Shown here: positions 7,210-12,050 of the stretch, piece by piece
Layout of the letters: each line of letters opens with the position of its first letter
How positions within the stretch are numbered: the stretch's first letter is position 1
Virus record (IMG/VR): IMGVR_UViG_3300033121_002354
Location: 1 to 64,000 of that record
DNA: 64,000 nucleotides
From: a virus
Taxonomy: Duplodnaviria > Caudoviricetes
Reading direction: 5' to 3' (one strand)
The notes under the pieces: model-generated
What the model was told of the DNA's origin: nothing
The model's database searches: none
The model's input: the letters and a program-made list of their open reading frames with translations, nothing else
Made by a program: the position numbers and the translations under genes

Positions 7210-7806
7210 ATGTGGTTTAAAAAATGCCAAGCATTAATGTCTTTAAAGGAACATATTGTTAATGATCCAAATTTCAAGTCGTGGTTTGGAAATAGTAAAG
7301 TAGTAGATAAATTAGGCAAACCATTAATAGTCTATAAAGGAATGTATCCTTATGACTATACTAAAGAAAAACCATTAAAATCTAATCAATATGAATTAGA
7401 TTTCAGTCAACGTGGACCTGAATTAGATACTATAAAACGACCATCACCATTTCCAACATTTGATAAAAAAGATCAAGAACCAGTTAATGTAGCAGGATTT
7501 TTTACGGATGATCCAAAAATAGCTGCAAGTTTTGCATTTACATTTACTAAAGGAGCTGTATTTCCAGTATTTCTAAGAATAGAAAACCCAAAAATATTTG
7601 ATGCCAATGGTGCTCCATCGGGGACACTTCAATTTGAAGCACCTGGGAAACCATTTAGAGATGCTGTTAGAAGTGGACAATACGATGGGGTTTTTATATT
7701 AAATACAAAAGATGAAGGAAATGTTTTTATTCCATTAAAACCCAATCAAATCAAATCTGCAATCCATAGCAAATTTAACTTTAATGACCCACGATTTGCA
7801 TACTAA
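7210..7806 (+). CDS. ADP-ribosyltransferase-like protein (ART-PolyVal type domain)
   Basis: FKSWFGNSKVVDKLGKPLIVYKG...GFFTDDP...VFPVFLRIENP...GQYDGVFI...PNQIKSA follows the ART-PolyVal pattern. Confidence 0.7.
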   Translation: MWFKKCQALMSLKEHIVNDPNFKSWFGNSKVVDKLGKPLIVYKGMYPYDYTKEKPLKSNQYELDFSQRGPELDTIKRPSPFPTFDKKDQEPVNVAGFFTDDPKIAASFAFTFTKGAVFPVFLRIENPKIFDANGAPSGTLQFEAPGKPFRDAVRSGQYDGVFILNTKDEGNVFIPLKPNQIKSAIHSKFNFNDPRFAY

Positions 7807-7905
7807 ATAAAAAAAATATATTAATTTGCGGTCCCAGGAAGGAATTTTTCTTTTTATTCCGAATAGTAAAGTTCCAAGGGAATGTCTCCCTTAAAAGAGA
7901 GTATC

Positions 7906-7974
7906 ATGAACGTAACTAATCCATCTCCGGTTGACTTAGAACGGGAACATCCCGATAGGAGATGGATTATCTAG
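7906..7974 (+). CDS. Leader peptide A (MNVTNPSPVDLEREHPDRRWII); not in ORF track
   Basis: 22 codons after AAGAGAG; in-frame alternative ATG at 7882; stop codon lies within attenuator segment 2. Confidence 0.7.
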   Translation: MNVTNPSPVDLEREHPDRRWII

Positions 7975-8041
7975 GCTTTTTAAGAGCATGTACGCCTTAA
8001 GCCCTGATAATCCTGAATAAAAGGTTATCAGGGTTTTTTTT
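7917..8041 (+). promoter_or_regulatory. Ribosome-dependent transcription attenuator A
   Basis: 1:2 = 7917-7928/7958-7969 (12 bp perfect); 2:3 = 7964-7978/7999-8013 (13 of 15); 3:4 terminator = 7999-8012/8023-8036 plus T8. Confidence 0.75.
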
Positions 8042-8057
8042 GTTCAGGGATAATATC

Positions 8058-8294
8058 ATGAAAAAAATAAAACAAATTTCAGAAAATTATGGAGCAATTC
8101 ATTCTCGTAGAGTTTATCTTTTAGATTGCACCAAAGAAGAAAAACAACAACTAAAAGATGCATTAGCGATGTTTGCTAAAATAGAAAAAATTCTAGGAGT
8201 AAAACGCAAAAATGCAGATTGGACAATGTTGCATAGCTACGGTTTTAATCAAGATGGAGTTTATGTAACAGTAGATCAGGGAGCATGTGGATGA
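8058..8294 (+). CDS. Hypothetical protein
   Basis: ATG at 8058 with AGGGA RBS; first gene after attenuator A. Confidence 0.55.
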   Translation: MKKIKQISENYGAIHSRRVYLLDCTKEEKQQLKDALAMFAKIEKILGVKRKNADWTMLHSYGFNQDGVYVTVDQGACG

Positions 8295-8464
8295 TTAACA
8301 AAGAAAGACCTCAAGCCCTTATTCTGAAAGATGAGGATGGCTCAATTTATAAAGCCATTCATGAGGCTTTGTCAATTGGTCAGAAAGTGTATCTATTAAA
8401 ATATCAGGAAGATTATGTGGATAATATTTTAAAGAATGCAAGACGTATTCTTTCTGAAGAATAA
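8291..8464 (+). CDS. Hypothetical protein (57 aa, not in ORF track)
   Basis: ATGA overlap, GGAG RBS; MINKERPQALILKDEDG...RILSEE. Confidence 0.5.
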   Translation: MINKERPQALILKDEDGSIYKAIHEALSIGQKVYLLKYQEDYVDNILKNARRILSEE

Positions 8465-8477
8465 AAATGAAATTTGT

Positions 8478-8551
8478 GGGGCCGTAGCTCAATTGGTTAG
8501 AGCATCCGCTTGTCACGCGGAAGGTTGCGAGTTCAAGTCTCGTCGGTCTCG
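8478..8551 (+). tRNA. tRNA-Asp(GTC)
   Basis: Full cloverleaf; anticodon arm TCCGC-TTGTCAC-GCGGA; no encoded CCA. Confidence 0.95.
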
Positions 8552-8570
8552 TTTGAAAAGTGAATAATAT

Positions 8571-8644
8571 GCTCCCATCGTCTAGCGGTCTAGGATGCCT
8601 GGCCTTTCAAGCCGGGGGCGTGAGTTCAAATCTCACTGGGAGTA
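8571..8644 (+). tRNA. tRNA-Glu(TTC)
   Basis: GCTCCCA/TGGGAGT; CTGGC-CTTTCAA-GCCGG. Confidence 0.93.
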
Positions 8645-8649
8645 TTCAT

Positions 8650-8720
8650 TGGCTTATGGTGTAACGGTAGCACGGGAGATTTTGAATCTTTTAGTCAAGG
8701 TTCGAATCCTTGTAGGCCAG
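8650..8720 (+). tRNA. tRNA-Gln(TTG)
   Basis: TGGCTTA/TAGGCCA (U1-A72); GGAGA-TTTTGAA-TCTTT. Confidence 0.93.
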
Positions 8721-8724
8721 TTAC

Positions 8725-8797
8725 AGTCTCGTAACTCAATTGGCAGAGTGTCTGCTTTACATGCAGAATGTTACAGGTTCAAGTCCTGTCGAGACTA
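8725..8797 (+). tRNA. tRNA-Val(TAC)
   Basis: AGTCTCG/CGAGACT; TCTGC-TTTACAT-GCAGA. Confidence 0.95.
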
Positions 8798-8802
8798 AAT
8801 AC

Positions 8803-8876
8803 CAGAGCGTAGCCTAGTTGGTTCAGGCACTTGATTTGGGGTCAAGACCACGCAGGTTCGAGTCCTGCCGCTCTGA
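8803..8876 (+). tRNA. tRNA-Pro(TGG)
   Basis: CAGAGCG/CGCTCTG; CTTGA-TTTGGGG-TCAAG. Confidence 0.95.
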
Positions 8877-8878
8877 TT

Positions 8879-8952
8879 GTGACTGTAGCTTAATTGGATA
8901 GAGCACTGCCTTGTGACGGCGGGGGTTGTCGGTTCAAATCCGACCAGTCACC
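8879..8952 (+). tRNA. tRNA-His(GTG)
   Basis: GTGACTG/CAGTCAC, C73; CTGCC-TTGTGAC-GGCGG; base at -1 is T. Confidence 0.93.
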
Positions 8953-9357: not shown

Positions 9358-9449
9358 TACCGGGAGCAAGATTTGAACTTGCGATCTGCTGATTATGATT
9401 CAGTTGCTTTAAGCCACGGTATTCTCAGTTCAAATCGGAGCAGAGACAT
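9358..9449. pseudogene. Two tRNA 3' fragments fused back to back
   Basis: Minus 9358-9415: D-loop GG through ATCATAA loop, T-arm GCAAG-TTCAAAT-CTTGC, TCCCGGT-A. Plus ~9414-9448: CCACG-GTATT-CTCAG-TTCAAAT-CGGAG-CAGAGAC-A. Both lack 5' acceptor strands. Confidence 0.6.
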
Positions 9450-10099
9450 TATAAAACTTCAAGTGCTTTATCAAGCATAATTTTGACTAAGTTGCTATCT
9501 ACCTTTCCTTTAGTGATTTTCATAATTTTCCCTAAAAGAAATGGTTTAATTTTATCTCCTTTTTTTCCTTTAAAGTCTGCAATAGCTTCTGGATTTTCTG
9601 AAATAACTTGAGTTATTATATTAGGTAAATCACTTCTATTTTCTATAAAAAGATTGTATTTTTCTGCTATTTGCATTGGCATTTCTTTTGAAGCTAAACA
9701 TTTTTCAGCGATTATAGCGGCATTTTGTGGAGAAATTTTAGATTCATCAACCATAGATGCTATTTGTATAAAATGATCTACAGACAGTTTAAGTCCACTA
9801 ATTTTGCAGTTTTGTTTTTTGGCTATATTTGTCCAGAATCCCAAAAATTGTTTAATAACTATATTTGGATTTACTTTTGTACACAGATACATAAACAAAT
9901 CTACTGTGTCTAGATCTGTATTTATGACTACAACTTCTTTTTGCGTTAATTTATAGAGATCACATAATTGTTTATCTCTTTGGATTGGAGTTATAAATTT
10001 ATTTTTAGCGATTCTATTTTCTAATGATTCGTATGGTGTTTTTGGGGTAGAATCTGTTAATTCTTTTAATTTATTTTGTAAAAATTCTTTATATTCCAT
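9449..10099 (-). CDS. Stand-alone GatB C-terminal (GatB/YqeY) tRNA-binding domain protein
   Basis: KISPQNAAIIAE...IITQVISENPEAIADFKG...FLLGKIMKITKGKVDSNLV matches the GatB helical/tail region; no catalytic N-terminal domain. Confidence 0.8.
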   Translation of the reverse strand: MEYKEFLQNKLKELTDSTPKTPYESLENRIAKNKFITPIQRDKQLCDLYKLTQKEVVVINTDLDTVDLFMYLCTKVNPNIVIKQFLGFWTNIAKKQNCKISGLKLSVDHFIQIASMVDESKISPQNAAIIAEKCLASKEMPMQIAEKYNLFIENRSDLPNIITQVISENPEAIADFKGKKGDKIKPFLLGKIMKITKGKVDSNLVKIMLDKALEVL

Positions 10100-10116
10100 G
10101 TTTAATTATACTATAA

Positions 10117-10189
10117 TAGTGGCGACTGGAATCGAACCAGTGACTTTTGGATTATGATTCCAATGTTCTTCCAACTGAACTACGCCACT
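10117..10189 (-). tRNA. tRNA-Met(CAT), elongator type
   Basis: AGTGGCG/CGCCACT; TTGGA-ATCATAA-TCCAA; Ile2 identity not excluded. Confidence 0.88.
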
Positions 10190-10193
10190 ATAA

Positions 10194-10281
10194 CTGCGGG
10201 AGTTGGAATCGAACCAACGTGGGAGACAAGCTCCGAACGGTTAACAGCCGTTTGCAGACTACCAACATCTGCGGTCCCGCA
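10194..10281 (-). tRNA. tRNA-Asn(GTT) with long variable arm
   Basis: TGCGGGA/TCCCGCA, G73; AACGG-CTGTTAA-CCGTT; V-arm GGAG-CTTGT-CTCC. Confidence 0.85.
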
Positions 10282-10282
10282 T

Positions 10283-10354
10283 TGGGAATCACCAGAATCG
10301 AACTGGTCTAATCGGTGCTTCAAACCGATGCTCTACCGTCTAAGCTAGATTCCC
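10283..10354 (-). tRNA. tRNA-Phe(GAA)
   Basis: GGGAATC/GATTCCC; TCGGT-TTGAAGC-ACCGA. Confidence 0.92.
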
Positions 10355-10359
10355 GTAAA

Positions 10360-10431
10360 AGCTAACGGTGGGAATCGAACCCACGTAGTCCTGTTTACGA
10401 GACAGGTGCATAACCACTCTGCCACATTAGC
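10360..10431 (-). tRNA. tRNA-Thr(CGT)
   Basis: GCTAATG/CGTTAGC; CCTGT-CTCGTAA-ACAGG. Confidence 0.92.
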
Positions 10432-10437
10432 GTTAAA

Positions 10438-10509
10438 TGGAGCCACAGGGAGTCAAACCCTGAATTTCGCTGTGCAAGAGCGATATTTTATCAGTTAAAT
10501 TATGGCCCC
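10438..10509 (-). tRNA. tRNA-Ala(TGC), divergent D and T loops
   Basis: GGGGCCA/TGGCTCC with G3:U70; TCGCT-CTTGCAC-AGCGA; T-loop TTTGACT. Confidence 0.85.
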
Positions 10510-10513
10510 AAAA

Positions 10514-10586
10514 TTGGTGCGGGTGGAATTGGACCACCGACCTATTTGTTATCAGCAAATTGCTCTACCAACTGAGCTACGCACCA
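10514..10586 (-). tRNA. tRNA-Ile(GAT)
   Basis: TGGTGCG/CGCACCA; ATTTG-CTGATAA-CAAAT; T-loop TCCAATT. Confidence 0.9.
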
Positions 10587-10659
10587 AGTGAGTGATGGGA
10601 GTCGAACCCATATGATTTTGCTTGGCTAGCAAATGCCTGACCAATTAGGCTACACTCAC
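10587..10659 (-). tRNA. tRNA-Gly(GCC) with A33
   Basis: GTGAGTG/CACTCAC, U73; TTTGC-TAGCCAA-GCAAA. Confidence 0.8.
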
Positions 10660-10664
10660 AATAC

Positions 10665-10692
10665 CGGGCACGAAAGGATTCGAACCTTTTGC
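10665..10692 (-). pseudogene. 3' fragment of split tRNA (probably Ser)
   Basis: AAAGG-TTCGAAT-CCTTT-CGTGCCC-G; acceptor strand pairs with GGGCATG at 11596-11602. Confidence 0.8.
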
Positions 10693-10702
10693 AAAAAAAA
10701 AA

Positions 10703-10791
10703 CGGCGTGAGAAGGATTCCAACCTTCAAATCACTTTTGTGATCCGTCGAATAGCAATCGACTTCCCCGCAGCAATGAGGACAGTCACGCC
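10703..10791 (-). tRNA. tRNA-Ser(GCT), divergent
   Basis: GGCGTGA/TCACGCC, G73; GTCGA-TTGCTAT-TCGAC; long V-arm GATCAC-AAAA-GTGATT; atypical D-arm and T-loop TTGGAAT. Confidence 0.8.
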
Positions 10792-11510
10792 ATATTGATT
10801 AGTTCTTTTTTTCCAAATGTTCCATTTTTCATGCCGTAAATTTCGTTTTTACGTAATACTATTAATTTGTGCGGAAAATACAACCATTTTGCTCTGTCCT
10901 TTTCTGTTGCATATCCTTTAACTTCTATATAGCATTCTAAATCTTTTATAAAAAAATCTGGAGTGTAAAATCTGTATTTCCCATCAAAATAGTAAATAAA
11001 TCTATTTTTGTTGCGTTGCCAATAAAACGCCCATTCATCTAAACTTTGTGCAGTTTTTAATTCCCATGTTCCATCTACCATTATTTTTCCTGCAATCTGG
11101 CTATTGTATTCTATTTTTTTGCACCTTCCAGCTTTAGGCAACCATCCTGCAGCATATCGCTTGTTTATTGACTCGCTAATTTTTTGACACCTTTCTTTTT
11201 CTTTTTCAGCAGTCTGTCCTAGACCAGAGCATCGACCGCGTAAAGCGGCAGACATTTTTTCTCTAATTTCTTTTGCTCTTTCTGATCCATAAGATTCTTC
11301 ATAACTCTTACCTTTGTTTGGTGGCTCTTTTCCTAAACGTGGTCTATGAGGCTCAGTTTTGTTTTTAAGGAATAGAGGAATATGCCCTTTTTTACTCTCA
11401 CTATCTTTTTTCCTTTTTGCAGGGCATTTATTTACATTTTCAGAGCAACAATAATTTCCATTTTTAAATTGGTGAATCGCGTCTAATCCACAACCATAAT
11501 TACACTTCAT
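10785..11510 (-). CDS. Putative homing endonuclease (NUMOD-like DNA-binding region plus PD-(D/E)XK domain)
   Basis: N-terminal CNYGCG...CCSE..CP; PPNKGKSYEESYG.ERAKEIREKMS; FYTPDFFI...YIEVKG. Confidence 0.75.
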   Translation of the reverse strand: MKCNYGCGLDAIHQFKNGNYCCSENVNKCPAKRKKDSESKKGHIPLFLKNKTEPHRPRLGKEPPNKGKSYEESYGSERAKEIREKMSAALRGRCSGLGQTAEKEKERCQKISESINKRYAAGWLPKAGRCKKIEYNSQIAGKIMVDGTWELKTAQSLDEWAFYWQRNKNRFIYYFDGKYRFYTPDFFIKDLECYIEVKGYATEKDRAKWLYFPHKLIVLRKNEIYGMKNGTFGKKELINMA

Positions 11511-11512
11511 TA

Positions 11513-11543
11513 GATTCTCCTAAAACATATTATTAGGAGAATC
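11513..11543 (-). promoter_or_regulatory. Hairpin sequestering the endonuclease RBS
   Basis: GATTCTCCTAA-9 nt-TTAGGAGAATC, perfect 11-bp stem ending 2 nt before ATG. Confidence 0.75.
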
Positions 11544-11567
11544 GTTTAAATATCCTGTATAAATATT

Positions 11568-11602
11568 CAAACTGCTGGTTTCACCCGCTCACCCACATGC
11601 CC
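11568..11602 (-). pseudogene. 5' fragment of split tRNA (probably Ser-GCT)
   Basis: GGGCATG-TG-GGT-GAGCGGGTGAA-ACC-A-GCAGT-TTG, breaking in the anticodon loop. Confidence 0.8.
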
Positions 11603-11605
11603 AAA

Positions 11606-11693
11606 CGGATGGAGGAGGAGTCGAACCCCCAAACCCCCTTTCAGAGATTGTCGCTTTTCAAAAGCGGTGGGCCTGCCAATGCCCAATCCATCC
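11606..11693 (-). tRNA. tRNA-Ser(TGA)
   Basis: GGATGGA/TCCATCC, G73; CGCT-TTTGAAA-AGCG; long V-arm. Confidence 0.9.
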
Positions 11694-11699
11694 AGAAAA

Positions 11700-11783
11700 T
11701 GCACAGTGATGGACTCGAACCACCGCAGCCCCGAAGGGCATCTGAGATACAGTCAGACGCAATTGCCGCTCTGCCAACTGTGC
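11700..11783 (-). tRNA. tRNA-Tyr(GTA)
   Basis: GCACAGT/ACTGTGC; TCTGA-CTGTATC-TCAGA; V-arm GCCC-TTCG-GGGC. Confidence 0.9.
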
Positions 11784-11811
11784 AAAATATATTCACTTTT
11801 TAAAGATCTAC

Positions 11812-11882
11812 AGACACAGGTGAGAGTCGAACTCACGATCACAGTTTTGCAGACTGTTGCCTTGCCACTTGGCTACTGCGTC
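11812..11882 (-). tRNA. tRNA-Cys(GCA)
   Basis: GACGCAG/CTGTGTC, U73; ACAGT-CTGCAAA-ACTGT. Confidence 0.95.
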
Positions 11883-11889
11883 AGTACAC

Positions 11890-12033
11890 AAAAAAAGCCC
11901 CGATAAACTTTTTTGTTTACCGGAGCTTGCTGTGCCTTTGTGATTTCAGCCAATCTACATTAGGCGTAGCTCCGGTGCGTTAGTGGCGGCGTTATTACCG
12001 CAACTATACCCTGTAAATGAGCTACACATAATG
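11890..12033 (-). promoter_or_regulatory. Ribosome-dependent transcription attenuator B
   Basis: 1:2 = 12019-12033/11958-11972 (14 of 15); 2:3 core ACCGGAGCT 11968-11976 / AGCTCCGGT 11919-11927; 3:4 terminator 11915-11928/11895-11908 (14 bp) plus T7, ending 7 nt before tRNA-Cys. Confidence 0.85.
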
Positions 12034-12050
12034 GACTGCTGACGTTTCAT
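11955..12050 (-). CDS. Leader peptide B (MKRQQSIMCSSFTGYSCGNNAATNAPELRLM); not in ORF track
   Basis: 31 codons; ATG 6 nt after a -10 box; composition mirrors the downstream tRNAs. Confidence 0.82.
   Translation of the reverse strand: MKRQQSIMCSSFTGYSCGNNAATNAPELRLM

Follow-up and report, generated by a model that had tools for sequence, protein, structure and literature searches.

Enterobacterial leader-peptide attenuators include multivalent versions, namely thrL (Thr/Ile) and ilvL of ilvGMEDA (Ile/Val/Leu), alongside trpL and hisL, and non-cognate codons are a normal component of such classical leaders. In Escherichia coli, the aminoacyl-tRNA synthetase genes pheST are likewise placed under a leader-peptide attenuator. 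T-box riboswitches bind uncharged tRNA directly, display a conserved T-box sequence and a specifier loop, and need no translation. The tRNA genes themselves are usually thought to be promoter-controlled, and discussions of phage tRNAs mostly cast them as constitutive aids to codon usage or as spare copies for counter-defence. Enterobacterial leader-peptide attenuators have been modelled (PMC1183508), and His leaders have been described upstream of hisS paralogues in bacilli (PMC2965389). Among cellular tRNA clusters, the long array of Anabaena PCC 7120 (the trn operon) is stress-induced and controlled by the repressor TrcR (PMC8421152, PMC10272220); these two papers make no mention of attenuation, a leader, or a terminator in connection with it. 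In our full-text literature search, we found no report of tRNA genes or arrays being regulated by leader-peptide attenuation, either in phages or in cells.

Here we analyze a locus (7906-8041) of an uncultured phage that, judged from its sequence, is probably a ribosome-mediated (leader-peptide) transcription attenuator gating two small ORFs and a six-tRNA array (array A). An earlier sequence-only reading had placed an attenuator before this Asp-Glu-Gln-Val-Pro-His array, and the proposal is now supported by the helix topology, the placement of the leader stop codon, shuffling tests, the leader composition, a second leader (leader B) before the other tRNA array of the phage (array B), and further, independent cases in an unrelated megaphage.

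Genomic context and tRNA inventory

The virus record comprises 113,039 bp with 35.9% GC, and the window, i.e., the whole stretch of DNA that was analyzed, is its first 64 kb. All 17 tRNA genes of the record are confined to 8.4-11.9 kb, where they form two convergent arrays (Table 1); an endonuclease gene is inserted between the two tRNA-Ser genes of array B. The region between the arrays holds a gene for a GatB_Yqey-domain protein and a 134-aa ORF without a family. The former is a stand-alone version of the domain (9449-10099, minus strand, 216 aa; Pfam E = 6.5e-24) flanked by both arrays. A 63-nt tRNA-like element (9358-9420, minus strand; Rfam tRNA, 33.3 bits) is located downstream of array B, in the interval that separates this gene from the 134-aa ORF; it was missed by ARAGORN, presents a CAT anticodon loop, and is apparently devoid of a D arm.

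The absence of Arg, Leu, and Trp tRNAs from the window, reported in the sequence-only reading, extends across the 113-kb record, which contains no tRNA-Lys either. The ORF at the right end of the record (111843-113039, minus strand) is truncated by the record end, and a contig of 176,423 bp carries the same proteins according to a protein database. The 113-kb record thus probably represents part of this 176-kb contig, and its tRNA inventory may therefore be incomplete.

Table 1. Positions of the two tRNA arrays and of the elements described upstream of them
Feature	Position	Strand	Remarks
ART-PolyVal gene	7210-7806		Upstream of leader A
Weak sigma-70-like promoter match	7795-7822	+	TTTGCA-16-TATATT, 9/12 matches; candidate start of the leader transcript
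TTGC-N3-CCCAGGA box	7826-7839	+	Upstream of leader A
Leader A ORF	7906-7974	+	22 codons, ATG at 7906, TAG at 7972-7974; encodes MNVTNPSPVDLEREHPDRRWII
Segment 1 (anti-antiterminator strand)	7917-7928	+	Within leader codons 4-8
Segment 2	7958-7969	+	Perfect 12/12 helix with segment 1
Segment 2'	7963-7977	+	Overlaps segment 2; pairs 13/15 with segment 3
Segment 3	8000-8014	+	5' arm of the terminator, alternatively antiterminator partner of segment 2'
Intrinsic terminator A	8003-8041	+	Stem-loop 8003-8033, T8 at 8034-8041
78-aa ORF	8058-8294	+	First gene past terminator A; also predicted as a gene in an identical contig from Logan
59-aa ORF	8285-8464	+	Overlaps the stop of the 78-aa ORF; ends 13 nt before tRNA-Asp (8477)
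Array A	8477-8952	+	tRNA-Asp(GTC), Glu(TTC), Gln(TTG), Val(TAC), Pro(TGG), His(GTG)
Array B	10116-11882	-	tRNA-Cys, Tyr, Ser, (endonuclease gene), Ser, Gly, Ile, Ala, Thr, Phe, Asn, Met
Terminator B	11895-11928	-	14 bp, 12 nt upstream of tRNA-Cys; strongest of the genome
Leader B	11955-12050	-	31 codons; central 20 residues all in the 10-amino-acid set of array B

Nested alternative helices upstream of array A

The leader A ORF could also start at an alternative in-frame ATG at 7882, which would give a leader of 30 codons. Its sequence and the adjoining terminator can form three mutually exclusive helices, 1:2, 2:3, and 3:4, with region folding energies of -23.7, -23.3, and -19.8 kcal/mol, respectively, wherein the antiterminator shares bases with the 5' arm of the terminator. 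Segments 2 and 2' together (7958-7977) span the codons from R18 to the stop, such that the TAG falls inside segment 2'. The predicted ribosome-free fold is 1:2 plus 3:4. The leader ORF, the 12-bp 1:2 helix, the 13/15 2:3 helix, and the terminator with its T8 tract, as originally described from the sequence, are all present with small coordinate corrections; the length of 14 bp given for the terminator is approximate, its stem consisting of 9 + 3 bp with one bulge, or of 15 pairs if the A-U and G-U pairs with the T tract are counted.

The entire leader A region folds at -57.6 kcal/mol (z = -4.27), and an equally stable fold was seen in 0/200 shuffles. When terminator A was held fixed and the 94 nt upstream of it were shuffled with dinucleotides preserved (n=1000), the 2':3 antiterminator duplex (-17.7 kcal/mol) was matched in nine shuffles and the 1:2 duplex (-21.1 kcal/mol) in three, and none of the 1000 contained both an antiterminator and a 1:2 helix that were as good. 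A genome-wide census of hairpins with T6 or more recovered only nine terminator-like structures, of which the two strongest are those upstream of arrays A and B (terminator A ranks second); the same two also have the best upstream antiterminator complementarity among the nine. Searches against Rfam returned tRNA as the sole family at the gathering score in the window, and neither the His, Trp, Thr, and Leu leader families nor the T-box matched in 7800-8060 at E ≤ 1. The antiterminator of leader A is also devoid of a UGGN bulge.

Promoter searches of this locus returned no convincing candidate. A Shine-Dalgarno-like GAGAG located 4 nt before the leader A ATG is weak, and about one-fifth of the genes of the phage have such an element. 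The candidate promoter for the leader transcript (Table 1) overlaps the stop of the ART-PolyVal gene, and similarly weak 9/12 matches occur downstream at 8025-8054 and 8396-8425, which are a possible independent promoter for the tRNAs.

A simpler account would have terminator A serve as the ordinary terminator of the ART-PolyVal transcript, with the hairpins before it unrelated, the leader untranslated, and array A transcribed from a promoter downstream of 8041. The location of terminator A downstream of a protein gene, the weak ribosome-binding site of leader A, and the promoter-like matches at 8025-8054 and 8396-8425 fit such an account, as does a composition signal in the leader that is moderate (p about 0.002-0.005; see below). 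However, the 200 nt that separate the ART-PolyVal stop from terminator A contain an ORF and two nested, mutually alternative helices, which together were unmatched in the shuffles. Moreover, this genome has few strong terminators, and the best two precede tRNA arrays, where they are accompanied by the best antiterminator complementarity, while the promoter-like sites in the leader A region are not enriched over shuffles. A leader of like design before array B (see below) further counts against this account, which we hence regard as unlikely.

Codon content and modelled sensing window of leader A

Stalled ribosomes were modelled by masking a footprint of -15 to +12 nt relative to the A-site codon, with folding restricted to the RNA lying 3' of the ribosome. 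A variant of the procedure, in which the whole leader was folded with only the footprint masked, was dropped; it allowed pairs enclosing the ribosome and mostly returned the terminator. When the modelled ribosome stalls at codon 8 or at any of codons 11-16, antiterminator pairing prevails over the terminator even in an equilibrium fold that includes segment 4; stalls at codons 9 and 10 are borderline, and from D17 (codon 17) to the stop, segment 2 is covered and the terminator forms. The modelled sensing window thus delimited comprises codons 8-16 (7927-7953; PVDLEREHP) and is defined by structure rather than composition. Seven of its nine codons specify amino acids in the array A set, whose background frequency in the phage proteins is 0.275 (binomial estimate for at least 7/9, about 0.0025).

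A recount upheld the composition figures of the sequence-only reading: 9/12 of the core codons 6-17 specify P, V, D, E, or H; the complete set of array A (D, E, Q, V, P, H) accounts for 16/61 codons; and leader A contains no Gln codon, though array A has a tRNA-Gln. Only 5/2223 small ORFs in the genome reach at least 9/12 residues in this set. A blind scorer placed leader A at a rank of 0.0054 among 2581 small ORFs, with residues 8-17 as its best window and a terminator found behind it, so that over both composition checks the empirical rank among small ORFs is 0.002-0.005. By itself, the composition of leader A provides a moderate signal. Over its full length, 10/22 residues belong to the set of array A and 7/22 to that of array B, the latter including four early codons (N, T, N, S). 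By standard wobble, 8/10 of the in-set codons (V3-D17) are readable by array A anticodons, the exceptions being GTT (V9) and CCC (P16).

The only out-of-set codons in the sensing window are L11 (TTA) and R13 (CGG). Of all Arg codons in the phage, CGG is the least used (3%); at R13, in the middle of the sensing window, it lies in a 5-bp mini-hairpin (7942-7954, plus strand; CGGGA/UCCCG) formed with codons 16-17. We infer that the rare CGG may be a built-in (programmed) pause, and L11 together with R13 may render the switch sensitive to host tRNA-Leu and tRNA-Arg as well, whereby the loop of attenuator A may also sample the host-supplied Leu(TTA) and rare Arg(CGG) tRNAs.

In the sequence-only reading, the leader codons for Leu, Arg, and Trp had been taken to predict missing Arg, Leu, and Trp tRNAs, i.e., to report tRNAs that once belonged to the operon or lie elsewhere. 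Two of these codons, L11 and R13, do fall inside the modelled sensing window, the record is devoid of Arg, Leu, Trp, and Lys tRNAs, and more tRNAs may exist on the 176-kb contig of which it is probably a fragment. Against this, segment 2 encodes R18, R19, W20, I21, and I22, and the helix therefore fixes the identity of all five. Modelled stalls at R18-I22 favor termination; hence, these codons cannot induce and predict no lost tRNAs. Furthermore, classical leaders carry many non-regulatory codons, and the sole extra tRNA-like element nearby (9358-9420) has a CAT anticodon, which is not that of an Arg, Leu, or Trp tRNA. The prediction of missing tRNAs accordingly fails for the codons of segment 2, and we consider this interpretation of the leader as a whole highly improbable.

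A reciprocal leader upstream of array B

All 20 residues in the core of leader B belong to the amino acid set of array B, with each of the ten amino acids represented, and none belong to that of array A. No other of the 87,833 stop-free windows across the six frames contains such a 20-residue run, and leader B has a rank of 0.0004 by the blind scorer. Nine bases of the 5' arm of terminator B can pair with the end of leader B. The two leaders are thus reciprocal, their compositions differing as their arrays differ.

Both leaders are also preceded by a TTGC...CCCAGGA box. The heptamer CCCAGGA has only two copies in the 113-kb genome, each upstream of a leader in the same orientation; the two boxes conform to TTGC-N(0-3)-CCCAGGA, and the counterpart before leader B is at 12085-12075 (minus strand). 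Upstream of leader B, TTGCCC is at the same time the -35 that goes with a TAGTAT -10; the latter ends 6 nt ahead of the leader ATG, and the leader B mRNA may therefore be leaderless. As a shared element, the box could act as a promoter or an operator, or it could be a chance occurrence; it was found post hoc, with the probability of chance estimated at ~0.04, and its significance is uncertain.

The shared box bears on a further alternative, namely, that the RNA switch is real but is set by the overall translation rate, as it is in antibiotic-sensing leaders, by direct binding of tRNA, or by an antiterminator protein of phage or host origin that binds the RNA at the 12-bp hairpin. The perfect 12-bp hairpin could indeed be a protein-binding site, the box is common to both leaders, and the presence of the out-of-set L11 and the rare CGG at R13 in the sensing window means that any slowdown of translation would induce read-through. 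Nevertheless, the leaders differ exactly as their arrays differ, for which a generic sensor has no need; the region yields no match to the T-box or any other Rfam family at E ≤ 1 and has no UGGN bulge; and the homopolymeric runs of Gln and Lys in leaders ahead of the corresponding tRNA blocks of a megaphage (see below) point to isotype-specific sensing. On balance, a switch of this generic kind appears rather unlikely.

Relatives of the locus and independent cases

Among the searches that we ran, the sole match to the leader A locus was a 100% identical contig, and no syntenic relative was recovered. The exact DNA pattern of helix 1:2 gave no match, and the GatB_Yqey protein and the polymerase used as single queries gave none either; a word-indexed protein search with the 216-aa protein returned only itself, and a scan of the JGI metagenomes with a two-sequence profile returned nothing. 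A protein-pattern scan of IMG/VR with the ART-PolyVal protein retrieved nine loci, none with tRNAs. HMMER searches with the 216-aa GatB_Yqey protein recovered a best relative with 42% identity on a phage-like 6-kb contig without tRNAs (L014). The phage has no close cultured relative: BLAST searches against cultured phages yielded isolated tRNAs only, and the best protein identity was ≤34%.

The DnaE-type DNA polymerase of this phage is encoded by two adjacent ORFs of 382 and 641 aa (G000 98077-101150; L012:14077-17147). Its relatives with 44-60% identity were found on Logan and ENA contigs, and the stretches and short contigs that were read hold no tRNAs. An identical split of the polymerase is shared by relatives in this identity range (L018, L020, and L021), and it consequently looks like a lineage trait and not a sequencing break.

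For independent cases, tRNA-rich phages were picked among distant IMG/VR relatives of the polymerase, and the leader scorer was run blind on them. The megaphage IMGVR_UViG_3300014205_000170 (518,809 bp, with 55 tRNA matches) furnished two. In the first (L049:4936-5078), an ORF with a run of seven Gln codons (six CAA and one CAG) and a terminator are positioned 62 nt before four tRNA-Gln genes, whose anticodons are TTG (three copies) and CTG (one copy). In the second (L050:4699-4829), an ORF with five consecutive Lys codons and a terminator are positioned 59 nt before four tRNA-Lys(TTT) genes. We describe these cases as analogous rather than syntenic because the DnaE-like polymerases of this phage and the megaphage are only 24% identical. 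The matched-leader design is, at the level of sequence, recurrent. It is not universal, since matched leaders were found neither in a 22-tRNA IMG/VR phage (L048) nor in the T4-like phages S-H9-2 and EniLVp02, and most other tRNA blocks of the megaphage are without obvious leaders.

Two small ORFs between terminator A and the tRNAs

The two small ORFs noted in the sequence-only reading between terminator A and the first tRNA (8058-8464) resolve into overlapping ORFs of 78 and 59 aa (Table 1), both of which are predicted by independent gene callers. Two protein genes thus separate terminator A from its tRNAs, while none do so in attenuator B, a point against the attenuator reading. No terminator is present between the small ORFs and array A, and the second ORF stops 13 nt before tRNA-Asp, which makes their co-regulation with the array, as had been suggested, plausible; co-transcription of the ORFs with array A is, from this gene arrangement, likewise plausible. 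The additional suggestion that the two proteins act in a response to tRNA depletion drew no support from comparisons: searches of Pfam and PHROG assigned neither ORF to a family, no homologue was found, a word-indexed protein search with the 78-aa ORF returned itself only, and the ESM Atlas gave no usable lead for either. Structure prediction, which had been recommended for these proteins, was also uninformative as to function, with AlphaFold pLDDT values of 46.9 and 74.6, the latter for a single helix.

Proposed mechanism and implications

Taking the leader-peptide attenuator as the preferred reading, we infer translation of the leader, coupling of transcription and translation, a promoter, and a physiological trigger. 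Transcription would begin upstream of 7906 or reach the leader by read-through from the ART-PolyVal gene. With no ribosome on the leader, or with a ribosome running to the TAG at 7972, segment 2 would be paired with segment 1 or covered; with segment 2 thus sequestered, the terminator (8003-8033 plus T8) would form and transcription would end at ~8041. A ribosome stalled with its A site on codons 8-16 would instead break helix 1:2 and leave segment 2' free to pair with the 5' arm of the terminator, allowing RNA polymerase to read into the ORFs and tRNA genes. The tRNAs of array A would hence be made when those very tRNAs, or their charged forms, run short. Such a loop would supply tRNAs upon shortage because seven of the nine window codons are decoded by array A tRNAs. 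Possible causes of shortage include phage-induced turnover of host tRNAs and host anticodon nucleases.

More generally, we give roughly even weight to the proposal that phages carry decoding-capacity sensors, with each array placed behind a leader spelled in its own amino acids, thereby closing a feedback loop on tRNA supply. The triggers of such sensors could be host anticodon-nuclease defences or the phage-driven loss of host tRNAs. If this is true, a phage would measure the decoding of specific codons and supply the matching tRNAs on demand, and a textbook attenuation mechanism would extend to a new class of regulated genes. It would also imply a testable link between host tRNA depletion, whether by defence nucleases or by shut-off, and phage tRNA expression, and the composition of a leader could show which tRNAs an array backs up. 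Viral metagenomes are amenable to systematic searches for matched leaders.

Comparison with known attenuation and tRNA-regulatory systems

Like thrL, ilvL, trpL, and hisL, the proposed attenuator A displays a short leader ORF with codons for multiple amino acids, alternative 1:2, 2:3, and 3:4 helices, a stop codon beside segment 2, and an intrinsic terminator before the genes that it would regulate. Unlike in those operons, the genes concerned here are those for tRNAs together with two small ORFs rather than for biosynthetic enzymes; moreover, the element is phage-encoded, its codon set tracks the roster of the tRNA array, and it shows no sequence similarity to any Rfam leader family. With the pheST and hisS leaders it shares the control of a component of the decoding apparatus via slow decoding of cognate codons; however, in those systems the component is a synthetase and a single amino acid is sensed, whereas in attenuator A it would be the tRNAs themselves, with five to six amino acids.

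The resemblance to T-box riboswitches lies in an antiterminator/terminator switch that would report tRNA status and control translation-related genes; unlike them, attenuator A has no T-box match, and an ORF spans its sensing region. As in the Anabaena trn operon, an accessory tRNA array is proposed to be silent by default and turned on when translation is impaired, but the Anabaena operon is cellular and is controlled by a protein repressor at its promoter, whereas attenuator A is phage-borne.

With respect to the Gln and Lys leaders of the megaphage, the latter have single-amino-acid, his-leader-like runs before blocks of the same isotype, with the terminator and tRNA block within about 60 nt, while attenuator A has a mixed and weaker roster and, unlike them, two ORFs between its terminator and the tRNAs. 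Nevertheless, they are alike in being phage-encoded and in presenting the same succession of a short cognate-rich ORF, a terminator, and then tRNAs.
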